Shown here piece after piece: positions 11,851 through 57,436 of a stretch of 64,000 nucleotides of DNA (within the stretch, counting starts at the first letter, position 1; every line of letters starts with the position of its first letter). This stretch comes from Thermoanaerobaculia bacterium. GTDB lineage: Bacteria; Acidobacteriota; Thermoanaerobaculia; Gp7-AA8. A program made the position numbers and the translations under genes. The stretch covers positions 4,771,892 to 4,835,891 of the forward strand of contig OY970284.1 of assembly GCA_963715895.1 (NCBI GenBank). The letters run 5' to 3'. The notes below the pieces were generated by a model. The model worked only from the letters and a program-made list of their open reading frames with translations, was not told the DNA's origin and made no database searches.

Positions 11851-11998
11851 AGGTTGCTGGGTTGCTAAGTTGCTGGGTTGCTTGGTCTCGCAGTCTCGCG
11901 GTTTCGCGGTCTCGGGGGTGTTTTGGCCGAATGTCACCCCGCGCGACTTCCAAACCACGAGACCTCGCAACCCAGCAACCCTGCAACGCAGCAACCCA
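11851..11998. repeat. Dispersed GGTTGC/GCAACC inverted-repeat element, copy 1
   Basis: Left arm AGGTTGCTGGGTTGCTAAGTTGCTGGGTTGCTTGGTCTCG and right arm CGAGACCTCGCAACCCAGCAACCCTGCAACGCAGCAACCCAG are reverse complements; arms are built from tandem GTTGCT(G/A)G octamers; about 65-bp GC-rich centre. Confidence 0.65.
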
Positions 11999-12005
11999 GA
12001 AACCG

Positions 12006-22239: not shown

Positions 22240-22241
22240 CC

Positions 22242-22316
22242 GGTTGCTAGGTTGCAAAGTCTCGCCGTCTCGACCCCGAGACCTTGCAACTCAGCAACCC
22301 AGCAACCTCGCAACCC
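22242..22316. repeat. Dispersed GGTTGC/GCAACC inverted-repeat element, copy 2
   Basis: GGTTGCTAGGTTGCAAAGTCTCG ... CGAGACCTTGCAACTCAGCAACCCAGCAACCTCGCAACCC; fills the whole gap between convergent stops (22239 and 22316). Confidence 0.65.
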
Positions 22317-25123: not shown

Positions 25124-25198
25124 GGGTTGCTGAGTTGCTTGGTTGCTTGGTTCGGCGGCGGTACTCAGCAACCTTGCAACCGAGCAACCCCGCAACCC
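25124..25198. repeat. Dispersed GGTTGC/GCAACC inverted-repeat element, copy 3
   Basis: GGGTTGCTGAGTTGCTTGGTTGCTTGGTTCG ... CTCAGCAACCTTGCAACCGAGCAACCCCGCAACCC; again fills a convergent intergenic gap (stops at 25122 and 25200). Confidence 0.65.
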
Positions 25199-34398: not shown

Positions 34399-34630
34399 TA
34401 CCAGAAGGCCGTTAACAGCCTTTCAGAGGCAGTTAACAGCCTTCCAGAGGCAGTTAATAGCCTTTCAGAGGCAGTTAACAGCCTTTCAGAGGCAGTTAAC
34501 AGCCTTCCAGAGGCAGTTAATAGCCTTTCAGAGGCAGTTAATAGCCTTTCAGAGGCAGTTAACAGCCTTCCAGAGGCAGTTAACAGCCTTCCAGAGGCAG
34601 TTAACAGCCTTCCAGAGGCAGTTAACGGTA
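34399..34630. repeat. 21-bp tandem repeat (minisatellite), about 11 copies
   Basis: Consensus GCAGTTAACAGCCTT(C/T)CAGAG with AACAGC/AATAGC and TTCCAG/TTTCAG variants; between purH stop and next gene; reads as (LTAFQRQ)n in one frame. Confidence 0.85.
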
Positions 34631-35618: not shown

Positions 35619-35625
35619 GTTTCAT

Positions 35626-35689
35626 GCGGAGACGCGGAGGCGCGGAGAGGAAATGCGTAATCCCTCTCTCCGCGCCTCCGCGTCTCCGC
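35626..35689. repeat. Long near-perfect hairpin (25-bp stem) 8 nt after gene stop
   Basis: GCGGAGACGCGGAGGCGCGGAGAGG / loop AAATGCGTAATC / CCTCT(CT)CCGCGCCTCCGCGTCTCCGC; no downstream T-tract. Confidence 0.6.
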
Positions 35690-35730
35690 GTGAAACAATG
35701 GTGTACTCTTTGTAGAAACAAGGAGAAGCC

Positions 35731-38845: not shown

Positions 38846-38943
38846 AATGTTGAATGTTGAATGTTCAATGTTGAATGTTGAATGGACGGGAGACGGTCGC
38901 CTCCATTCAACATTGAACATTCAACATTCAACATTCAACATTC
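38846..38943. repeat. AT-rich heptamer-repeat palindrome (about 33-bp stem)
   Basis: Left arm (GAATGTT)x5-like CAATGTTGAATGTTGAATGTTCAATGTTGAATGTTGAATGG, 16-nt spacer, right arm its reverse complement; in the gap between the multidomain redox gene and the next gene. Confidence 0.75.
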
Positions 38944-39796: not shown

Positions 39797-39928
39797 GGGA
39801 CTCTCTACGATTCCGCCCTCTAAATCCATCCGTTCCATTCCCTCTCGACGGAAGGGCGTGGCAAGAAATTCAACTGCACCGTGAGATTTCTCATACTCTG
39901 ACTGGAATCGTCGGCACCCTGTTACACG

Positions 39929-40112
39929 TCGAGAGCCTTCTCCCCCGCGGTTTTTTGCGGGGGAGAAGGTGCCGACAGGCGGATGAGGGGGCGCTTGGCA
40001 GGATGAGTCGCTATTTCCAGAGGAGTAACAAGGCATGCTGCTCAGCGCCCCCCTCATCCGCCTTCGGCACCTTCTCCCCCCGCAAAAAACCGCGGGGGGA
40101 GAAGGCTCTCGA
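39929..40112. repeat. Large nested inverted repeat (about 66-bp arms, about 50-bp spacer) upstream of the FHA-cytochrome gene
   Basis: Left arm TCGAGAGCCTTCTCCCCCGCGGTTTTTTGCGGGGGAGAAGGTGCCGACAGGCGGATGAGGGGGCGC; right arm its near-perfect reverse complement. Each arm also contains an internal 13-bp-stem hairpin (CCTTCTCCCCCGC ... GCGGGGGAGAAGG). Confidence 0.75.
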
Positions 40113-40199
40113 TGAAAAAGCCTGGGTAGAGGCTCAACAGGACCACGAGAAAGGTAGGGGCCAGCTACACCGGGCCGAACACCCGCGGGTGGCCACCCC

Positions 40200-42431
40200 A
40201 TGAGTTTCGTCATCCAGCGCGCTTCGGGGCGCGGGCTGGCGCTGACGCAGGTGCGGCGCGATCTGCTCCGCATCGGGCGGGGGACGAATGCCGAGCTGCG
40301 CTCGGAGAATCCTGCCGTGGCCCTCGAGCATGCCGTCATCGAAGGCGACGCCAACGGCTTCACCGTCACCGACAAAGGGAGCATCACCGGCACGTACGTC
40401 AATCGCCGGCCGGTGGAGACGGCGCGGCTGGCCAGGGGCGACGTCATCGAGATCGGCGACCTGCGCATCGAGGTACAGGTTCTCGAGCCGGGCAAGCCGC
40501 TCTTCGTCCGCGTCAGCACGACGTCATCCGTGGCGGGGGTATTCGCCGGCGATGACGAGGAGATCGTCCAGGGCGCGGGAGCCCGCGGCGGCGCGGTCAA
40601 GGCGCGGAAGATCGACTACGCCGACGCCTTTCGTCTCAAGCGCGCCTGGCTGACCAAGCTCTCGCTCATCGCCATCCTTCTGATCGTCGCGTTCCTTGTT
40701 GTGGCCGAGGTCACCAAACCGGAGAAACAGAACGCGTTCATGCCGGGAGGGATCTCGTCGGCGCACGCGCGGGCGAAAGATCCCAGAACCGGCGAGTTGA
40801 TCGGCAACAACTGCCGCGCATGTCACAACCCGTGGCGCGGCGTTTCCGACACGAGCTGCACCGAATGTCACGGCAGACTGCCGCATGCGGAGAACCAGAT
40901 CGGCGCTCCGGCATGCGCCGACTGCCACTCCGAGCATCGCGGCTTCGCCAAACTGGCCGCGGCCGCGGACGCCACCTGCATCTCCTGCCACGGCGACATC
41001 GCCGCTCATGTCAAGGATCCGGCCGCCCTGGCGACGAAACCGAAAGAGATCCTCCACATCCTCTCCTTCGGCGGCCAACATCCCGACTTCACGCCGCGGA
41101 GCGATCCCGACACCCTTCTCTTCAACCACGCCCTCCACCTCAAGGCGGGTGGCGTGTTCAACGGAGAAGGACGCCGCGAAGAACTTCAGTGCACGCAATG
41201 CCACAAGCTCGTCGAGACGAAGGGGAAAGTCGATCCCGCTCCGATCAGCTTCAAGAGCCACTGCCAGCGCTGCCACAAACTGACGTTCGATCCGCGCTTC
41301 CCTAACGTCGAAGTGCCGCATGGAGGCGATCCCGCCGACGTCTACGGCTTCGTCCTGGCCACCTACGCCGGCAACCGCGACATCATCGGCAAGAGTCCGG
41401 AAGAGGTCCGGCGCATTCTGACGCTGCGGCCGCCGTCGACTCCCGACCAGGGAGCGGTGCTCAACGCCGAGCAGGTCGTCAAGGTCAAATGCAGCAAGTG
41501 CCACATCCTCCAGCGCTCCGGCACCCGTCTGGCCGCGAAGACGCCCGAGATCCCGGCGCGCTGGTTCCTGAAGGCGAAATTCACGCACACGCCGCACCGC
41601 ACCCTTTCGTGCGAGTCGTGTCACGAAAATGTCCGTCAGAGCACCAATACGTCAGACGTGCTGATGCCTGTGCGCAAAGATTGCACCGGATGCCACGGCG
41701 GGCAGTCGGCCAAAACATCCAGTAGCTGCGCGACCTGTCATGAGTATCATGAGCATTCGAAGGTCTTGTTGACGAAATTGGGGGCTTCCTCCGGGAAAGG
41801 AACGCCTCTTGCCCCGAAGGAACATGGAGGCGGATCCCGGATGATCGAGACGGTTCTTCTGTGGGCCATCGTCCTGTTACTGCTGGTGGTGCTCGTGCCG
41901 GCAGGGTTGGCGCTGGTCCAGCGTATCCGGGCCGGCGAGCTCGATCGCGCCGCGGGCGTGCGCGCCGCGGCCGCGCAGCAGGCGCCGACAGCGAAGATTC
42001 CGCCGCTGCAGGGTTCCGAGACGCCGTCGGCTCCGCCGCCCGCCGCGCCGGCGAAGGCGCCGGACATCACGAAGATGGCTCCCGTCCCCACCGCCCCGGC
42101 GGAAGGATCGACGGTGATGGTGCAGTGGTATGGCCTCCTGCAGTGCACCGGCGGCGCGCTGGAAGGACAGCGCTTCGTCATCGAAGAAGGCGGCCTCTAC
42201 ATCGGCCGCGATCCGGCCATGTCGCAGGTGGCCATCTCGGACAAACGCATCTCCAAACGGCACGTGCGGATCATTCCGCGTGATGGTAAGGTAATGGCCA
42301 TCGATCAGAACTCGACGAACGGTACGTTCCTCGGCAAGGCCGGCGGCGAGCGGATCACCGAGGTACAGCTCAAACGGGGAGACGTTCTCGTCCTGGCCGA
42401 CAACGCGGCCACGTTTGTGTACCAGATATAG
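40200..42431 (+). CDS. FHA - TM - decahaem c-type cytochrome - TM - FHA protein
   Basis: 743 aa. N-terminal FHA (LLRIGRGTNAELRS...GSITGTYVN...GDVIEIGDLRI), TM1 (LSLIAILLIVAFLVVAEV), ten CxxCH motifs (CRACH, CTECH, CADCH, CISCH, CTQCH, CQRCH, CSKCH, CESCH, CTGCH, CATCH), TM2 (VLLWAIVLLLLVVLVPAGLALV), Pro/Ala linker, C-terminal FHA (LYIGRDPAMSQVAISDKRISKRHVRI...STNGTFL...GDVLVLAD). Confidence 0.85.
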   Translation: MSFVIQRASGRGLALTQVRRDLLRIGRGTNAELRSENPAVALEHAVIEGDANGFTVTDKGSITGTYVNRRPVETARLARGDVIEIGDLRIEVQVLEPGKPLFVRVSTTSSVAGVFAGDDEEIVQGAGARGGAVKARKIDYADAFRLKRAWLTKLSLIAILLIVAFLVVAEVTKPEKQNAFMPGGISSAHARAKDPRTGELIGNNCRACHNPWRGVSDTSCTECHGRLPHAENQIGAPACADCHSEHRGFAKLAAAADATCISCHGDIAAHVKDPAALATKPKEILHILSFGGQHPDFTPRSDPDTLLFNHALHLKAGGVFNGEGRREELQCTQCHKLVETKGKVDPAPISFKSHCQRCHKLTFDPRFPNVEVPHGGDPADVYGFVLATYAGNRDIIGKSPEEVRRILTLRPPSTPDQGAVLNAEQVVKVKCSKCHILQRSGTRLAAKTPEIPARWFLKAKFTHTPHRTLSCESCHENVRQSTNTSDVLMPVRKDCTGCHGGQSAKTSSSCATCHEYHEHSKVLLTKLGASSGKGTPLAPKEHGGGSRMIETVLLWAIVLLLLVVLVPAGLALVQRIRAGELDRAAGVRAAAAQQAPTAKIPPLQGSETPSAPPPAAPAKAPDITKMAPVPTAPAEGSTVMVQWYGLLQCTGGALEGQRFVIEEGGLYIGRDPAMSQVAISDKRISKRHVRIIPRDGKVMAIDQNSTNGTFLGKAGGERITEVQLKRGDVLVLADNAATFVYQI

Positions 42432-42454
42432 CGAAGGGTGGAGGGAGACCGCGG

Positions 42455-44278
42455 ATGCGCTCCGGTGTCACGTCGATCCTCATGATTCTCGTCGCCACGG
42501 CCTGCCTGGCGCAGGGCCGCACGATCGGACGGCGCGACAGGGCGTTGGCGACCACTCCCGATCCCCCTTCGTGCGCCATCCCTCTGAACGCGGCCCTTCC
42601 CGACGTCTGCACCGACGGCGCGATCGGCCTCGGGACGCCGGAGCCATTCAGCGCCATTTCGAAAGCCGAGGCGATTGAGATCGTCAAGGCGGCGGCGACG
42701 GCGCTTGCCGGCGACACCGCCACCATCGCCATCGTCGACCGTACCGGCCGTCCGGTGGCGTTGTTCCGGCAAGCCAACGCCAACCCTGCCAACGATGACG
42801 TCGCCCTCGGCGTGGCCCGCACCGCCGCCTTCTTCAGCAACAGCCAGGCGCCGCTTTCCTCGCGCACGGTGCGCACCATTTCTCAAGTGCACTTCCCACC
42901 AGGCGTGGTCAACACGCCGGTCGGCGCTCTGTACGGGATCGAACAGTCGAACCGCGGATGCGATGTAAACGTGCTGTGGAACACGAATCAGTGCGTTCCG
43001 CGAGCGAAGTCGATCGGACAGTTCGCCGCCTTCACCGGCGCGCCGAAGCCCTGCCCGATCACTGATCGCTCCGGCTGCGGCCCCGGTCTCATCACCGGGA
43101 AAATCCTGCCGGACGATGCGCCGTATCCGCAGGAAGTCGATACCCGTCCCGTCAACGCCGGCGGCATCCCGCTCTACCGCGTTCTCGACACCAGTGCCGT
43201 CAAGCAGGGGATCGCCCGCACCGGAAAGCTGCTCGGCGCGATCGGCGTCACCGGCATCCCCGGCGATCCACAGCTCGCCGAATTCGCCGCCGTTACCGGC
43301 GCCTTTGGTCCGCTCAACGCCGGCGTGGCGCCGATCATCCCGCTGCCGAACTATCCGCTGCCGCAGCCGCAGAACGTCTTCATCGACGGAATCCGCCTGC
43401 CGTTCATCGGGCCGGATCAACAGCTGAAGTTCAATGCAGACGGACTGCCGATCGGTCTCCAGCAACTGCCCGGCACCTCGCCAGGTTCAGCCGCGGGATT
43501 TACCGCGGGCACCTTCGTCTACGGACCCTTTAACGGCGGCTGCCCGCCGAACGGCTATCTCGTCGGTCCCAACGCCAGCGTGCTGCCGGGCGGGCTGACG
43601 GCATCGGCGGTCGACGCCATCGTGCAGCGCGCCGTCGCGGCGGCCAGGCGCACCCGCGCTCAGGTGCGCCTCCCACTCAACAGCTACACCCGCATGATCA
43701 TCTCCGTAGCCGACACCGACGGAACGATCCTGGCGCACTACCGGATGCCCGACTCCCTCTTCGACGCCGTCGACGTCGTCCTGGCGAAAGCGCGCAACGT
43801 CGCCTACGTCAACGGCAGCGATCCGAACGTCCGCAACGATCTTCCCGGCATTCCCGCCGGCTATTGGGTAACCGGGCGCACGATCGGTTTCGGTGCGCAG
43901 CCGCTCTATCCGCCGGGCATCGATTCGCAGGCATTCGATGTCGGTCCCGGGCCGTGGTACTCCACTCTCTTTCTGCCAAACATCGCCAAGCCGTGCAGCC
44001 AGGGATCGCAGGCGCCGAACGCCAACCAGAACGGCGTCACATTCTTCGGCGGATCCACGCCGCTCGTCGACAACGGCAAACTCGTCGGTGGTCTCGGCGT
44101 CAGCGGCGACGGTATCGAGCAGGACGACTATGTCACCTACCTCGGCGCGGGCCCTCTCCTTCCGCCGACCGACAAATGGGCCGATCAGCTCAATGTCAAC
44201 GGCGCCCGTCTGCCGATGTTCAAGTTCCCCCGGAGCCCCGAAGGAGTCACGGAGTGCGGGGGGAAGCCGTGTTCGTAG
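42455..44278 (+). CDS. Secreted tandem GlcG/HbpS-like (DUF336) haem-binding protein
   Basis: Signal peptide; two DUF336-like modules (SKAEAIEIVKAAATALAGDTATIAIVDRTGRPVALFRQ... and SAVDAIVQRAVAAARRTRAQ...MIISVADTDGTILAHY...GGSTPLVDNGKLVGGLGVSGDGIEQDD). Confidence 0.7.
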   Translation: MRSGVTSILMILVATACLAQGRTIGRRDRALATTPDPPSCAIPLNAALPDVCTDGAIGLGTPEPFSAISKAEAIEIVKAAATALAGDTATIAIVDRTGRPVALFRQANANPANDDVALGVARTAAFFSNSQAPLSSRTVRTISQVHFPPGVVNTPVGALYGIEQSNRGCDVNVLWNTNQCVPRAKSIGQFAAFTGAPKPCPITDRSGCGPGLITGKILPDDAPYPQEVDTRPVNAGGIPLYRVLDTSAVKQGIARTGKLLGAIGVTGIPGDPQLAEFAAVTGAFGPLNAGVAPIIPLPNYPLPQPQNVFIDGIRLPFIGPDQQLKFNADGLPIGLQQLPGTSPGSAAGFTAGTFVYGPFNGGCPPNGYLVGPNASVLPGGLTASAVDAIVQRAVAAARRTRAQVRLPLNSYTRMIISVADTDGTILAHYRMPDSLFDAVDVVLAKARNVAYVNGSDPNVRNDLPGIPAGYWVTGRTIGFGAQPLYPPGIDSQAFDVGPGPWYSTLFLPNIAKPCSQGSQAPNANQNGVTFFGGSTPLVDNGKLVGGLGVSGDGIEQDDYVTYLGAGPLLPPTDKWADQLNVNGARLPMFKFPRSPEGVTECGGKPCS

Positions 44279-44290
44279 GGCGTAACGCAA

Positions 44291-44466
44291 CGCTACGTAG
44301 GTCGGACTCACGTAGGTCGGACTCACGTAGGTCGGACTCACGTAGGTCGGACTCTCTAGTCCGACCGGCGCTTGGGAGATCGGTAATTGATAACCCGCCT
44401 GTAGTTCAGAGCCGCGCAAGAACCGGTCGGACTAGAGAGTCCGACCTACGTGAGTCCGACCTACGT
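44291..44466. repeat. Composite tandem + inverted repeat element (MITE-like)
   Basis: Four tandem copies of ACGTAGGTCGGACTC (44295-44354), palindrome GGTCGGACTCTCTAGTCCGACC, about 57-bp spacer, second palindrome GGTCGGACTAGAGAGTCCGACC and two inverted copies GAGTCCGACCTACGT ending at the OMP start codon. Confidence 0.75.
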
Positions 44467-46454
44467 TTGGCTTCGCTCGTCTTTCTCATCCTCCTGTTCG
44501 CAACCTCGGCATTCGCGCAACCCGCAACCGCGCCCATCACCATCAACGACGACCAGCCCGTTTACGCCGAGGGTGTGCCGTTCCTGCTCACGGGAACATC
44601 GCTGCCCGGCGCTATCGTCACCATCGCCATCGAGAAATCGGGCAACGGCCAGACCACAGCCGATGCTTCGGGATATTGGACATTGATCTGGACACCGCCG
44701 GTAAAAACCGGCACGTGGACCATCACCGCCAGCTCGGGGGGCGTGACGGCGACGCAGCTTCTGCGCGTACAGATTCAGGGCAACGTACAGCGGCAGCCGA
44801 TCGTCGAGCCGGTCGTGCGCTACGGGACGCCGGAGATTCCGCATCCCGAGGCGTATCAGGAGATGACGGATCGGTGGCGCATCACGCCGCCGCCGTACGA
44901 GCTGACCGAGAAATCGAAAGGCCGCCCCATCGGCGACAAAGGCGCCTCGATCGATCCGTACAACCAGAACCTGATCAAAGGCGACCTGCCGATCTTCGGG
45001 AAGGACTGGTTCCTCGACTTCACCGGCATCAGCGACACCCTCGCCGAGTCGCGCACGCTGCCGACGCCGTCGGGCGTCAGCGCCGTCAAGCCGACCTCGA
45101 TCACCGTCTTCGGCAAAGACAACCAGAACCTCTTCAACGAGAACCTGATCGCCTCCTTCGACCTCTTCCAGGGCGACACCGCCTTCAAGCCCATCACGCA
45201 GCGCTTCAAGATCACGCTGATCGAAAACATCAACTACGTACACCTGCGCGAGAACGCTCTCGTCAAGCCTGACGTCCGCCGCGGAACGTCGCGCACCGAT
45301 GGGTATCTCTCGCTGCAGGAGATCTTCTACGAGCGAAAGATCCGCGATGTCTCGCCGAACTACGACTTCATGTCATTCCGCGTCGGATCGCAGCCCTTCA
45401 ACAGCGACTTCCGCGGGTTCATCTTCAACGACACGAACCTTGGCGCCCGCCTTTTCGGCAACTTCGCGTCCAATCGCTATCAATACAACGTCGCCGTGTT
45501 CGACCGGCTGGAAAAAGACACCAACTCCGGCCTCAACACAATGGAGCTCCGCGATCAGCAGGTCGGCATCGCCAATATCTACCTGCAGGACTTCCTCGTC
45601 CGCGGCTACACCCAGGAGTTCAGCGTCCACTATCTACGCGACGGCGCCACCTTTCACTACGACCGCAACGGCATCCTGGTGCGCCCTGCGCCGGTTGGGG
45701 TCTTCACGCCGCACGAGATCCGCGCCACGTACATCGGCGAGGCGGGCCTGGGACACATCGGCCGCTTCAACGTCGACCACGCCATCTACTACGTCTTCGG
45801 CACCGACGAGTTGAATCCGATCGCCGGCCCCGATCCGAATCTAAAGAACGGGAACGCCGTGAAGATCGGAGCCGGCAGCGCGGCCCTCGAGGTCTCCTAC
45901 GACCACGATTGGTATCGGCCGCGGCTGGCCCTTTTCTACGCCTCGGGCGACCGCAATCCGCGCGACCGCAACGCCCGCGGCTTCGACTCCATCTTCGACA
46001 GTCCTAATTTCGCCGGCGGCGGTTTCTCTTCTTCAACCGCCTCGGCATCCGCCTTCCGACGACCGGCGTCGCGCTCGTCGAGCGCGGCTCGCTCCTGACC
46101 AGCCTGCGCAGCTCGAAGGATGAAGGGCAGCCGAACTACGTCAATCCCGGCGTGCAGATCGCCAGCACGGGAATCGATGTCAACGTCACGCCGCGGCTGA
46201 CGGCAATCTTCACCGGCAACTACATCCGCTTCGACGCCGTCGAGTCGGTCGAGGCCATCCTCTTCCAGGGCAACATCCACAAGACGCTCGGCACCGATCT
46301 CTCCGCCGGCCTTCGCTACCGGCCGCTCCTCAACCAGAACATCGTCATCGTCGGCGGCACCGCCGTCCTCCTCCCCGGCCGAGGATTCAAAGACATCTAT
46401 GAAAAAGACCGGCCGCTCTACCACGTCTTCACGAACGTAATCCTGACCTTCTGA
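44467..46454 (+). pseudogene. Outer-membrane beta-barrel (porin-like) protein, interrupted by a -1 frameshift at about 46021-46025
   Basis: TTG start; signal peptide (ASLVFLILLFATSAFAQP); alternating-hydrophobic beta-strand composition; C-terminus ...HVFTNVILTF ends in Phe (OMP sorting signature). The reading frame switches at GGCGGCGGTTTCTC (3-T run): frame 1 ends at 46098, frame 0 continues as FLFFNRLGIRLP... to 46454. This may be a sequencing error rather than a true pseudogene. Confidence 0.6.
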
Positions 46455-49400
46455 TGAAACGGATAACGATCGCTCTCGCCGCAGTGCTCATCGTCACGCT
46501 GGCCGTGATCAGAATCCGCGCGCAGACATCCCCCGACCTCCCGCCGCTGATGCGCCAGACACAGGCCGAGGCCGATGCGAAGAGTGCCGGATGCCTCTCG
46601 TGTCATAACGGGATCGAACCGATGCACGCCTCGGCGGCGGTGAAGCTGGCCTGCACCGACTGCCACGGCGGCGACGGTTCGGCGCGGACGAAAGAGGCCG
46701 CGCATGTCAAGCCGCTCCATCCCGAGATCTGGAAGACCTCGGCCAATCCGCAGCGCAGCTACACCGCCCTTCTGAAAGAGACGCCGGAGTTCGTGAAGTT
46801 CGTCAATCCAGGCGACCTTCGCGTCTCGCAGGAGACCTGCGGCGGCTGCCATCAGCGCCAGGTCAACGCTGTACCGCGCAGCACCATGACGACGTCCGCC
46901 GTCTTCTGGGCCGCCGTCAGCTACGCCAACGGTCTCGTCAGCCGCAAGCAGGGACTCCTCGGCGAGAGCTACAACCGCGCCGGCAACGCCACGTCCATCA
47001 AACCGGCAACGCCGCCGACACCCGATCAGATCGCCAAAGGCGCGCTGCCGATCCTCGTCCCACTGCCGCGCTGGGAGGTCTTTCAGCCGGCCGAGTACTT
47101 CCGCGCTTTCGAGCGAGGCGGCATCTCGGGAAGCAGCTCCTTCCCGGATATCGGCAATCCCAGCCCCGAGGGGGAAGCGGGTAAGCCTGACATCCGCCTC
47201 GGCAACCGCGGACGCGGTACCGGCCTGCGCATCTCGCCCGCGCTCATCAATCTCAACAAGACGCGGCTCAACGATCCCCATCTCTCGTTCCTCGGCACGA
47301 ACGATCATCCAGGCGACTACCGCTCCTCCGGATGCACGGGATGCCACGTCGTCTACGCCAACGATCGCGATCCATTGCATTCCTCTAGCTACGCTCAGTA
47401 CGGCAACACCGGCCTCTCCATCACCGGCGACAAATCGATCCCGAAGAATGAGCAGGGACACCCGCTACGCCACCAGTTCACGCGCGCCGTACCAACGAGC
47501 CAGTGCATGACGTGTCACATGCATCAGCCGAACTCCTTCGTGAACACGTATCTCGGCTACACGATGTGGGACTACGAGTCAGACGCCGAGCTGCTCTGGC
47601 CGAAGAAACAGAAGTATCCGACCGAGGCCGAGAAGCGCGCCTCGCTCGACGCAAATCCAGAAGGCGCTGCGCCGAGGGGATTGTGGAGCGATGAGAAGTT
47701 CCTCGAAAACGTCTCCGGCCTCAATTCGCAGGCGAAGAACACCCAGTTCGCCGACTACCACGGGCACGGCTGGAACTTCATGGCCGTCTACAAACGCGAC
47801 CACAAAGGCAACCTGCTCGACGCCGACGGCAGAATCGTTTCGTTCGATGATCCCGCCAAGTTCAGCAAAGCCGTTCATCTGCAGGACATCCACCTCGAGA
47901 AAGGGATGCACTGCGCCGACTGCCACTTCTCGCAGGACGAGCACGGCAACGGCCAGATCTACGCCGAGTACGGCAACAACATCGAGATCGAATGCCAGGA
48001 CTGCCACGGCAACGTCGACGCCTACACCAACCTGCGCACCTCCGGCCCCGCCGCGCCGCCGGGAGGGACCGATCTTCGGCTCGGAACCACACCGTTCGGT
48101 CAACGCCGCTTCATCTGGGTCAACGGCAGGCTGTATCAGAGGTCGATGCTGAACCCCGGCATGCAGTGGGAAGTCATCCAGGTCAAAGACAGCATCACGC
48201 CCGGTAACGCGCATTACAACGAGCGCTCCGCGTATGCGAAGACGATCCAGCGCGACGGTACGACCTGGGGAACGTCATCCAGCGCGAATTTCGCCCACGC
48301 CGACGCCAGGATGACTTGCTATGCGTGCCACACCTCGTGGATGACCTCATGCTCCGGCTGCCATCTGCCGCAGGAGCAGAACGCCAAGACCGAGGTCCAT
48401 CACTACGAGGGGGGCGAGACGAGAAACTACGCCTCGTACAACCCCCAGGTCATCCGCACCGACGTCTTCATGCTTGGTGTCAACGGCACCACCAAAGGGC
48501 ATCGCCTAGCGCCCGTTCGGTCATCGTCCGCGCTCGTGATCAGCTCGACGAACGCATTGCGCGACCGCATCTACATCCAGCAGCCACCCATCTCCTCGCC
48601 CGGATATTCGAGCCAGGCCTTCAACGCCCACGTCCCGCACACCGTCCGCACCCGCGAAACGCAGGGGTGCGGAAGCTGCCACATCACCAAAGAGAACGAC
48701 AACAACGCCTGGCTCGCCCAGCTCCTGCTGCAAGGAACCAACTTCGTCAACTTCGTCGGCCGCTACGCCTACGTCGCGGAAGGAAAGGGCGGGTTCGAGG
48801 GCGTCTGCGTAACCGAGTGGGACGAGCCGCAGGCGGTCATCGGATCGTCGCTGCACAAGATCGTCTATCCCGACTACTACGCGAAGCACCAGGCCAACAA
48901 GCTGGAGCTGCAGACCGCGCACGAACATCACGGCGACTCGCGCTCACTGCAGATGCGCGGTGAGTTCATCTACAGCGCGAACGGCGAGGAAGGCTTCAGC
49001 GTCTACGACATCGCCAACATCGACAACAAAGACTTCTCCGAGCGCATCGTCTCCCAGCCGGTCTCCCCGCTAGGCCAGCGTACCTTCGTGAAGACGAAGT
49101 TCGCCTCGGCCGTGGCGCTGCCGACGACGATGCCGGTGGCCCCCACGCGCCAGACGCAGTTCATCAAGGAAAACGAAGAGCAGACGATTCACCCGCTGTA
49201 CAAATACGTCTACGTCGCCGACCGCGAAGAGGGGCTGATCCTCATCGACGTGACGACGCTGTCAGACGCCAATCCGTCGAACAACTTCCTCACGCGCGCC
49301 GTGACCTTCAATCCCGGCGGCGCGCTCAACGGTGCCCGATCGATCTACGTCGCCGGACGCTGGGTCTTCATCGGCGCAGCGGGTGGCTTGGTCATCGTCG

Positions 49401-50065
49401 ACGTCGACAAACCGCTCGAGCCGAGGATTGTCGCCACGATTCCTGAATTGAAGGATGCCACCGGCATCGGCGTGCAGTTCCGCTATGCCTTTGTCACCAC
49501 GCCGGAAGGATTGGCCAGCGTCGACATCACCGACCCGTCGCATCCGCGCGTGGCCGCGCGCCTGGCCGTTCCCGACGCCAGAAGCGTCTATGTCGCTCGC
49601 ACCTACGCCTACATCGGCGGAGGCGCCCGCGGGATGGTCATCGTCGACGTCGAGCACCCGGAGAAGCCGGCAATCCTCCCGTGGAGCGACGAGCTCCCGC
49701 ATGACGCCAACGACGTGAAAGTGGCCTCGACCAACGCATCGACCTTCGCGTACGTCGCCGACGGCAAGTACGGTCTCAAGGTCTACCAGTTCCTCTCCCC
49801 CGAATGGACGCCCGGATACGCCGGCTTCAGCCCGCGTCCCGAACCGCGCCTCGTCGCCACCCGCCGCACGCACGGCCCGGCGCTGGCGGTCTCGAAGGGC
49901 CTCGACCGCGACCGCGCCGTCGACGAAGGCGGCAATCAGGTTTCGATCTTCAACCGCATCGGCGCGCGCCCGATGACGCTCCCCGAGATGCAGCGGCTCT
50001 ACCTCCGCGACGGATCGCTCTACACCGTCAGCGAGACGCCGACTACGAAGCCGGTCACGAGGTGA
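46454..50065 (+). CDS. Secreted multihaem (about 10 CxxCH) c-type cytochrome fused to C-terminal LVIVD-repeat beta-propeller
   Basis: ATG overlaps OMP stop (ATGA); signal peptide. CxxCH motifs: CLSCH, CTDCH, CGGCH, CTGCH, CMTCH, CADCH, CQDCH, CYACH, CSGCH, CGSCH. C-terminal about 350 aa contain LVIVD-type repeats (LILIDVT, LVIVDVD, MVIVDVE, YAYIGGG). Confidence 0.85.
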   Translation: MKRITIALAAVLIVTLAVIRIRAQTSPDLPPLMRQTQAEADAKSAGCLSCHNGIEPMHASAAVKLACTDCHGGDGSARTKEAAHVKPLHPEIWKTSANPQRSYTALLKETPEFVKFVNPGDLRVSQETCGGCHQRQVNAVPRSTMTTSAVFWAAVSYANGLVSRKQGLLGESYNRAGNATSIKPATPPTPDQIAKGALPILVPLPRWEVFQPAEYFRAFERGGISGSSSFPDIGNPSPEGEAGKPDIRLGNRGRGTGLRISPALINLNKTRLNDPHLSFLGTNDHPGDYRSSGCTGCHVVYANDRDPLHSSSYAQYGNTGLSITGDKSIPKNEQGHPLRHQFTRAVPTSQCMTCHMHQPNSFVNTYLGYTMWDYESDAELLWPKKQKYPTEAEKRASLDANPEGAAPRGLWSDEKFLENVSGLNSQAKNTQFADYHGHGWNFMAVYKRDHKGNLLDADGRIVSFDDPAKFSKAVHLQDIHLEKGMHCADCHFSQDEHGNGQIYAEYGNNIEIECQDCHGNVDAYTNLRTSGPAAPPGGTDLRLGTTPFGQRRFIWVNGRLYQRSMLNPGMQWEVIQVKDSITPGNAHYNERSAYAKTIQRDGTTWGTSSSANFAHADARMTCYACHTSWMTSCSGCHLPQEQNAKTEVHHYEGGETRNYASYNPQVIRTDVFMLGVNGTTKGHRLAPVRSSSALVISSTNALRDRIYIQQPPISSPGYSSQAFNAHVPHTVRTRETQGCGSCHITKENDNNAWLAQLLLQGTNFVNFVGRYAYVAEGKGGFEGVCVTEWDEPQAVIGSSLHKIVYPDYYAKHQANKLELQTAHEHHGDSRSLQMRGEFIYSANGEEGFSVYDIANIDNKDFSERIVSQPVSPLGQRTFVKTKFASAVALPTTMPVAPTRQTQFIKENEEQTIHPLYKYVYVADREEGLILIDVTTLSDANPSNNFLTRAVTFNPGGALNGARSIYVAGRWVFIGAAGGLVIVDVDKPLEPRIVATIPELKDATGIGVQFRYAFVTTPEGLASVDITDPSHPRVAARLAVPDARSVYVARTYAYIGGGARGMVIVDVEHPEKPAILPWSDELPHDANDVKVASTNASTFAYVADGKYGLKVYQFLSPEWTPGYAGFSPRPEPRLVATRRTHGPALAVSKGLDRDRAVDEGGNQVSIFNRIGARPMTLPEMQRLYLRDGSLYTVSETPTTKPVTR

Positions 50066-57327: not shown

Positions 57328-57436
57328 GATCTGAACGTCAGACGTCAGGCTCCTGAACCTGAACGTCACGGCCGCGAACCTGAACGTCAGGCTCCTGAGC
57401 CTGAACTTCACGTCAATGAACCTGAACGTCATGTCG
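57328..57436. promoter_or_regulatory. Array of about 5 direct repeats (CTGAACGTCA core, about 22-25-bp spacing) upstream of the M50 protease gene
   Basis: CTGAACGTCA at 57331, 57356, 57380, 57422 and the variant CTGAACTTCA at 57401, each embedded in (GAAC)CTGAACGTCAGGCTCCTGA-like units. Confidence 0.5.

Follow-up and report, generated by a model that had tools for sequence, protein, structure and literature searches.

A probable GTAG-tagged REPIN with amplified outer half-units in an operon of a Thermoanaerobaculia bacterium

We analysed a compact repeat element in a 64,000-nt stretch of a Thermoanaerobaculia genome (assembly GCA_963715895.1, contig OY970284.1, forward-strand positions 4,771,892 to 4,835,891; hereafter the window, with positions counted from its first letter). 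The element lies between the stop codon of a gene for an HbpS-like/GlcG protein (TAG 44276-44278) and the signal-peptide codons of the next gene, which encodes an outer membrane protein (OMP); an earlier reading made from the letters alone (the sequence-only reading) had placed it inside an operon, and this location is borne out. The element is very likely one copy of a REPIN family, that is, of paired repetitive extragenic palindromic (REP) sequences, which is specific to Thermoanaerobaculia (Acidobacteriota); this copy lies in frame in the OMP gene and has had its outer half-REPs amplified. REPINs, a concept described by Bertels & Rainey 2011 (PMC3116915), and the bacterial interspersed mosaic elements (BIMEs) are inverted REP doublets mobilised by RAYT, also called TnpAREP (PMC3116915; Ton-Hoang 2012, PMC3333891; Corneloup 2021, PMC8266576). 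The element belongs to this known kind, and its local features are unusual.

The composite build described in the sequence-only reading (four tandem units, two palindromes and an inverted tandem) was recovered with every part in its place, except that the array begins at 44295 and not at 44291, the four preceding bases lying outside any unit. Tandem Repeats Finder (TRF) delimited 4.0 exact copies of ACGTAGGTCGGACTC at 44295-44354 and 2.0 exact copies of its reverse complement at 44437-44466. Two 22-nt palindromes were returned by a repeat finder, GGTCGGACT-CTCT-AGTCCGACC at 44345-44366 and GGTCGGACT-AGAG-AGTCCGACC at 44425-44446. The core between them (44367-44424) includes GTAATTGATAAC and is AT-richer, as had been noted (57% GC vs about 63% for the window), with a length of 58 nt rather than 57. 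The inverted arms extend over 50 nt with 96% complementarity and the REP pair forms one long hairpin (RNA fold of the element region, -126 kcal/mol, z = -11.4); the left REP hairpin folds as DNA at -10.6 kcal/mol (z = -4.4). At 0 mismatches, ACGTAGGTCGGACTC has no copy in the window beyond the element. With up to 3 mismatches there are 9 window matches vs 2.1 expected, a number reached in 0 of 100 shuffles. A profile built from 137 family members matched the window at two full palindromes and four partial units, all within the element, whose parts are as follows.

44295-44339, + strand: three orphan half-REP units, 3 x ACGTAGGTCGGACTC (TRF, partial nhmmer matches, no full REP)
44340-44366, + strand: left REP, AC-GTAG-GTCGGACT-CTCT-AGTCCGAC-C (regular expression, profile, DNA fold)
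44367-44424, + strand: REPIN spacer or core (blastn to unrelated loci, alignment of 8 copies)
44425-44451, - strand: right REP, inverted, GTAG foot outward (repeat, regular expression, fold and profile matches)
44452-44466, - strand: one right-side orphan half-REP unit, GAGTCCGACCTACGT (TRF, regular expression, partial profile match)

The left REP is built of a GTAG foot, a stem of 8-9 bp and a 4-nt loop. Each orphan half-REP runs from AC and GTAG through the 5' stem arm to the first base of the loop and lacks the 3' arm. The conserved functional unit is 44340-44451 (112 nt), two head-to-head GTAG REP hairpins around a 58-nt spacer (58 nt as annotated, 60 nt by a tolerant pattern). Tandem arrays are present at the inverted ends, as had been proposed, and are not the true ends of the element.

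The family was delimited by searching one genome per species for exact matches to the 15-mer, which gave at least 113 stretches. Thermoanaerobaculia metagenome-assembled genomes (MAGs), about 12 in number, contributed 86 of the 113 among the matches listed. Nearly every 15-mer in these loci continues into TCY-AGTCCGAC, and the family unit reads AC-GTAG-GTCGGACT-CTCY-AGTCCGAC; the 27 loci from other phyla among the matches listed hold lone 15-mers in unrelated sequence, without a hairpin. The tolerant pattern found at least 155 full REPs in 578 kb of the 86 Thermoanaerobaculia loci and none in 202 kb of the 27 other-phyla loci among the matches listed. Of 153 REP copies, 150-152 retain AC and GTAG. 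Neighbouring REP pairs, among the matches listed, are arranged head-to-head with GTAG outside in 60 cases, tail-to-tail in 10 and in tandem in 5, and spacer lengths cluster at about 10-18, 25-32 and 58-60 nt. One Thermoanaerobaculia chromosome of 5.9 Mb carries the 15-mer at 10 loci or more. The short palindromic unit (20-40 nt in such REPs) with a terminal GTAG and, in relatives, the dispersed high copy number are those of GTAG REPs; the extragenic location is not shared by the window copy.

The core has a history of its own within the family. A blastn search with an 82-nt probe that spans the core and the inner arms detected copies with 86-94% identity at L090, L061 and L002 (one MAG), L075, L052 and L016 (another MAG), L060, and the orthologous locus L085, which places this subfamily at no fewer than 7 non-orthologous loci in 3 or more genomes. 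Eight copies of the whole 112-nt unit align at 89% column identity. RNAalifold on the eight core copies gave 0 compensatory pairs and a positive covariation term; because compensatory changes are absent, the core is taken as conserved by descent and not as a folded RNA. A single-copy element, the outcome that the sequence-only reading had set against mobility, is thus not what we see, since core and REP recur at many loci of related genomes.

Other repeats were seen at REP loops. At L005:7069-7150, L015:7333-7420, L036:6393-6470, L096:1-105 and L111:1-108, TCTAGCGAGGCTCTGCCTCAAACCGACGAGATGTAAGCAAAGC.. abuts a half REP after the loop CTCTAG; found at these five loci, which belong to two MAGs, it has the appearance of one end of a larger element that inserts into REP loops. 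A second palindromic repeat lies in the window at 39870-40150, upstream of the operon, with a core TCGAGAGCCTTCTCCCCCGCGGTTTTTTGCGGGGGAGAAGG and outer inverted ends GGGCATTTCTCAC/GTGAGAAATGC. The TCGAGAGCCTTCTCCCCCGCGGTTTTTTGCGGGGGAGAAGG palindromic repeat recurs in L117:2875-3010, L075 and L001, where it sits in a REP loop (CTAG).

A transposase gene accompanies the repeats in relatives. Among the REPs of L022, a 162-aa open reading frame (ORF; L022:657-1145) matches NCBIfam NF047646 (REP-associated tyrosine transposase, RayT) with 102 bits at a cutoff of 80, and also matches Pfam Y1_Tnp and carries the HVH, WQ and YIxxNP motifs. Family REPs lie on both sides of it, including three REPINs in a row downstream. 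A homologue 77% identical to this protein is encoded in L123, from an unrelated metagenome, with a REPIN upstream and REPs at and after the 3' end of its gene, and several of the 915 homologues carry the source label of a RayT from Thermoanaerobaculia. For a REPIN one would expect a RayT gene flanked by ACGTAGGTCGGACT..AGTCCGAC in the source genome; a cognate gene flanked by the same REP is found in L022 and L123, and not in the window.

If the family works like the REP/RayT systems that have been characterised, each REP would form a hairpin when its DNA is single-stranded, and a Y1 (HUH) transposase, RayT/TnpAREP, encoded elsewhere in the genome would recognise the hairpin and the GTAG foot. 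The enzyme would then cut and rejoin the strand, moving or copying the REP pair, with ACGTAGGTCGGACTCTCYAGTCCGAC as its putative single-stranded substrate. A check for target-site duplications, proposed in the sequence-only reading, found none at either candidate boundary (44295-44466 or 44340-44451), and none flank other copies. The window element is bordered by ...AACGCAACGCT on the left and TTGGCTTCGC... on the right, with no direct repeat. The lack of a target-site duplication fits IS200/IS605-type single-strand chemistry and not a classical miniature inverted-repeat transposable element (MITE). From the initial description of a MITE-type mobile element, the small size, non-autonomy and multiple copies survive; the class is replaced by that of a REPIN linked to RayT/Y1.

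The same operon was reached in seven further loci through homologues of the downstream protein. They are given here with the amino acid identity of the mature protein to that of the window.

L114, 96.2%: no REPIN
L117, 90.0%: REPIN, with a second palindromic element in the loop of the left REP
L085, 88.8%: REPIN, same core as in the window
L118, 88.1%: no REPIN
L120, 87.9%: REPIN, 14-nt spacer
L122, 85.6%: no REPIN
L121, 84.8%: remnant only

The HbpS-like/GlcG gene precedes the site in all of them. A REPIN occupies it in three of the seven relatives (L085, L117 and L120), a remnant with a mutated arm (CGACCTGCGT followed by TTG) is left in L121, and three (L114, L118 and L122) have no REPIN; retention at one position in all relatives, which would have spoken for a regulatory structure, is thus not observed. 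The right junction, ..CCTACGT followed by TTB.., is common to the window, L085, L117 and L120, and three unrelated REPIN spacers occupy this one orthologous site in related genomes. At L118 and L122 the site holds GCAGGCG..CGCCTGC hairpins, which are also found elsewhere. In the closest relative the segment encoding the N-terminus is wholly replaced (L114:3025-3150 vs window 44279-44520) by another signal peptide, KRKSAAVFVLALAVV, behind which a (GGTCTCGC)4...(GCGAGACC) hairpin lies in frame, with nucleotide identity to the window of 92% on the downstream side and 89% on the upstream side. The 5' end of the OMP gene is a hotspot for the turnover of palindromic elements. A small palindromic family, GCAGGCGTCYCGCCTGC with GGGCGTCYCGCCC nearby, was also seen at the REPIN site (L118:3030-3075 and L122) and elsewhere (L031:3698 and L103:4108).

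Where the OMP gene starts determines how the element is read. The relevant features, all on the + strand, are listed below; a slash marks the signal-peptide cleavage position here and in the translation that follows.

42455-44278, + strand: upstream gene, 607 aa, HbpS-like/GlcG (ORF list; PF03928, E 1.5e-23)
44241-44271, + strand: likely true start region of the OMP gene (sequence, open frame, orthologue starts)
44254-46454, + strand: OMP gene (orthologues of 640-710 aa, ending FTNVILTF)
44467-44520, + strand: TTG 44467-44469 with the signal-peptide hydrophobic core and cleavage motif LASLVFLILLFATSAFA/Q

The REPIN is most likely part of the coding sequence, its translation lengthening the signal-peptide n-region by a long stretch rich in arginine. 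The OMP frame is open from far upstream of the element. An AAGGAG at 44241-44246 is followed, after a 7-nt gap, by GTG 44254-44256, an arrangement that is conserved, and a second GTG stands at 44269-44271; both GTGs fall within the 3' end of the upstream gene and keep the OMP frame through the whole element. The starts called for 120 orthologues fall on the first GTG (MRGEAV-type) in 55 and on the second (MLV/MFV-type) in 32, together 87 of 120. In L085 and L120, whose REPINs are stop-free, TTC replaces the TTG and there is no other usable start before the hydrophobic core. The GTG 44254/44269 region is likely to be the OMP translation start and TTG 44467 a possible alternative only; on these grounds the earlier claim that the element supplies the only available start, a TTG, is not supported.

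Translation through the element gives MRGEAVFVGRNATL(RRSDS)4LVRPALGRSVIDNPPVVQSRARTGRTRESDLRESDLR-LASLVFLILLFATSAFA/Q, in which the left orphan half-REP units encode RRSDS. The element is stop-free in the OMP frame only, the other two frames having at least four stops. Orthologues always have arginines just before the hydrophobic core, and the window's arginine is the last codon of the REPIN. We propose that the REPIN would have landed between the start codon and the hydrophobic core and that its lack of stops in precisely the OMP frame explains why it has stayed. REPINs are also found in frame in an RmlD-like (dTDP-4-dehydrorhamnose reductase) gene, at L128:9245-9664 and L130:910-1329 (reverse strand). 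They occupy one site, between ..HISTDCVF.G and YY(T/S)E.D.P, in two metagenomes and with different spacers; the left REP is read in the RRSDS-LVRP frame and each copy has one extra 15-nt half-REP.

The same REPIN could instead be intergenic, with the OMP starting at TTG 44467 and an untranslated hairpin that modulates mRNA stability, processing or translational coupling; RNase III, for example, could cut the duplex of about 58 bp and free the TTG. We consider this somewhat unlikely. The TTG directly adjoins both the end of the element and the hydrophobic core, a TTG is also present in L117 and L121, and the second element of L117 breaks the frame, so that a downstream start is used there; REPs, moreover, are known to influence how stable an mRNA is and how strongly neighbouring genes are expressed (Di Nocera et al. 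2013, PMC3733652). Against it, the TTG has no Shine-Dalgarno sequence before it, and the stem would sequester the region where a ribosome binds; the TTC of L085 and L120 leaves those genes without such a start; initiation at the TTG would deprive the signal peptide of the positively charged n-region found immediately upstream in all orthologues; and the element is open only in the frame of the OMP gene.

Several observations weigh against our preferred reading of an in-frame copy of a mobile REPIN family. As to activity of the family in this genome, tblastn found no RayT gene and the profile no second REP copy in the 64-kb window. Mobility of the REPIN is inferred from its distribution, no excision or insertion event having been observed. 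The comparison with empty sites that had been suggested yielded REPIN-free loci, the closest relative included, and no clean empty site: all three carry other palindromic sequence, and for that reason the insertion boundaries cannot be read from them. In the window a TTG stands directly before the hydrophobic core, and translation through a hairpin of -126 kcal/mol and an n-region of about 75 residues in a signal peptide would each be unusual. Compared with L114 and L117, the OMP gene itself has lost one nucleotide between 46028 and 46029 (GGTTTCTC-TTCTTC vs GGCTTCTCCTTCTTC); its ORF consequently ends at 46098, and the codons for the conserved C-terminus ..FTNVILTF are in another frame, with the TGA at 46452-46454. 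This frameshift is either a pseudogene mutation or a sequence error; if the gene is a pseudogene, the frame of the element is not under selection in this genome. An argument for frame selection from the 15- and 24-nt units being multiples of three was dropped, because the 15-nt unit also duplicates in probably non-coding contexts and divisibility by three is no evidence for such selection.

The operon at 40200-50065 encodes an FHA and multihaem cytochrome (MtrC/MtrF-like) protein, the HbpS-like protein, the beta-barrel-like OMP, which ends in F, and an LVIVD and cytochrome protein, and may be an extracellular electron-transfer module of the porin-cytochrome type. In relatives, start and stop codons in this operon overlap.

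Beyond a plain REPIN, the window element has four half-REP units of identical sequence, three of them to the left and one to the right. These extra 15-mers are orphan outer REP halves added by local duplication, and their perfect identity shows that they are recent. A metagenome scan for the unit-unit junction found seven further loci (L124-L130) with two to three left units, several of them with extra or partial right units. L033 has one extra unit per side, exact reverse complements of each other down to a variant base, and the duplication is thus present at eight other loci (L033 and L124-L130). Older units have diverged (ACGTGGG.., ACGCAGG.., ACGTAAG..). Since it recurs at independent loci, we regard the 15-nt duplication as a structure-driven by-product of the REP hairpin and not as a functional terminal repeat. 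Candidate routes to it would be slippage or template switching at the hairpin, nested insertion, or aberrant cutting and rejoining by RayT. A microhomology-mediated duplication is not favoured, given exactly 4.0 copies and no microhomology at either border of the array. That RayT made the unit junctions is speculation: the unit-unit junction C/A and the unit-loop junction C/T match the dinucleotides at which TnpAREP cleaves (C/T or C/A; PMC8266576), and the base before single-copy REPs, usually A or T and not C, speaks against it.

Nested insertion supposes that a REPIN entered the centre of a long hairpin of the same family, ACGTAGGTCGGACTC joined to GAGTCCGACCTACGT, leaving mirror-image outer units. 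The exact mirror images in L033, long single hairpins of this kind in L013 and L006, unit junctions without microhomology, and a flank complementarity of head-to-head dimers of 3.98 of 10 positions, vs 2.99 +/- 0.19 in shuffled pairs, are all consistent with it. We nevertheless judge it rather unlikely: the four left and two right units of the window are asymmetric, so that two or more of the left units need another mechanism, the right units of L129 are shifted by 3 nt from the phase of a mirror image, and in L125, L127 and L128 just one of the two sides has gained a unit.

Five more hairpins with tandem-array arms lie in the window, at 11852-12004, 22240-22316, 25125-25198, 35619-35696 and 38846-38943. 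The arms of such tandem-armed hairpins are inverted arrays of one 7-8 nt unit, for instance GGTTGCNN/NNGCAACC, GGTCTCGC/GCGAGACC, GCGGAGNN or AATGTTG/CATTCAA, and the same unit families (GGTTGCNN, AATGTTG, ACGCGAAG, AGTGGATT and others) turn up again at loci whose flanks and loops are unrelated. A TRF-based count gave 49 in 644 kb of Thermoanaerobaculia loci (L002-L107), or about 7.6 for every 100 kb, and the 202 kb from other phyla yielded none. The five counted in the window are the element studied and four of the five others, the hairpin at 22240-22316 falling below the automated filter. At 25125, 35619 and 38846 the hairpin begins no more than about 10 nt from a stop triplet that looks in frame. 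In two window hairpins inspected directly, variant units are mirrored between the arms, and a mirror-register test gave 7% mismatches in the best register vs 20% in shifted ones, a result that is only suggestive because the best register was chosen after the fact. We found no description of tandem-armed hairpins in the literature searched. They may explain the iterated REPIN arms seen here; that the tandem half-REP arms exemplify a mechanism peculiar to the lineage, in which both arms of a hairpin grow one unit at a time, is an idea we hold tentatively and think doubtful. The window also contains 10.7 copies of a 21-bp unit, CCAGAGGCAGTTAACAGCCTT, at 34401-34626 (94% match, with a near-palindrome around GTTAAC in each unit) and about 4 copies of a 21/42-bp tandem repeat, ACGTCAGGCTCCTGAACCTGA.., at 57342-57431.

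It is very unlikely that the element is a locus-specific regulatory structure, such as an attenuator, a terminator or a protein-binding palindrome, that evolved in place for this operon. All the orthologous loci do have some hairpin sequence between the start codon and the signal peptide, be it a REPIN, GCAGGCG..CGCCTGC or a GGTCTCGC/GCGAGACC array; the sequence, core included, nonetheless occurs at many unrelated loci, shows no covariation in its core and has no Rfam family match (at gathering thresholds, none was found in the whole window). An Rfam scan by E-value of 44200-44560 did return mir-1307, at 35.5 bits against a threshold of 69, a generic resemblance to long hairpins that we discarded. 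There is no T-run, only TTT following the stem, and 0 terminator-like sites were found in 43800-44800, which sets aside an intrinsic terminator; no sigma-70 promoter was found. The best candidate in the core for a site of integration host factor (IHF), TATCAATTACCGA on the reverse strand, picked by eye, misses the WATCAANNNNTTR consensus at two positions and was rejected. A classical MITE, a deletion derivative of an insertion sequence with a DDE transposase, terminal inverted repeats and target-site duplications, would also be small, multi-copy, inverted at its ends and polymorphic at orthologous sites, and is extremely improbable given the absent target-site duplication, ends that are GTAG-footed self-complementary hairpins, and a Y1/RayT as the only transposase adjoining the repeats; no insertion sequence with a DDE transposase and the same ends was seen in the loci examined, no dedicated search having been made.

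The element resembles REPINs and BIMEs in combining two inverted short palindromes and a spacer in one long hairpin with a 5' GTAG foot, in its many dispersed copies, in the REP-flanked Y1 transposase gene and in the lack of a target-site duplication. It differs from them in its host (Acidobacteriota, Thermoanaerobaculia), in that the window copy lies inside an ORF, and in the tandem amplification of its outer half-REPs. GTAG-tagged REPs have been described across prokaryotes by Di Nocera et al. 2013 (PMC3733652), with head-to-head dimers, conserved spacers and intragenic copies. As in those families, our REPs have a GTAG terminus, an 8-bp stem and a 4-nt loop, head-to-head dimers with conserved spacers predominate, some units at the N-terminal ends of ORFs encode 20-80 residues, and clusters are reiterated with flanking DNA (here L010, L017 and L022). 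The stem motif GTCGGAC does not appear in the text of the paper, its figure of consensus sequences aside, nor are exact arrays of 15-nt half-units described in that text. No paper on Thermoanaerobaculia and repetitive extragenic palindromic sequences was found in the literature searched.

Rickettsia palindromic elements (RPEs), which PMC3733652 also cites, are selfish palindromes that lie in frame in protein-coding genes. As with RPEs, a palindromic repeat is tolerated here in frame and adds a hydrophilic peptide, at the OMP N-terminus and in the RmlD-like gene (L128 and L130); unlike RPEs, to which it is unrelated in sequence, it is inserted in the n-region of a signal peptide, and RPEs are not known to have an associated RayT. 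The MITEs Correia/NEMIS and ERIC are likewise small and non-autonomous, have inverted ends, form hairpins when transcribed and occur in operons; our element differs from them in the absence of a target-site duplication, in its GTAG-footed self-folding ends and in its HUH Y1 rather than DDE enzyme.

REP/RayT systems have been characterised mainly in Proteobacteria, and our analysis adds a GTAG-REP/REPIN family with many members, its RayT included, from uncultured Thermoanaerobaculia of soil. A REPIN appears to be tolerable in frame in the n-region of a signal peptide and, in relatives, inside an RmlD-like enzyme; the inconsistent placement of the OMP start by gene callers is attributable to the element. 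One chromosomal site can host REPINs with three unrelated spacers in related genomes, and the outer REP half is a recurrent 15-nt duplication unit. The hairpins with tandem arms found across the lineage are potentially the more original observation. If they form a class of mobile palindromes not described before, self-nesting or templated by hairpins and perhaps driven by the many RayT-like Y1 enzymes of Thermoanaerobaculia, the window element would link them with classical REPINs.

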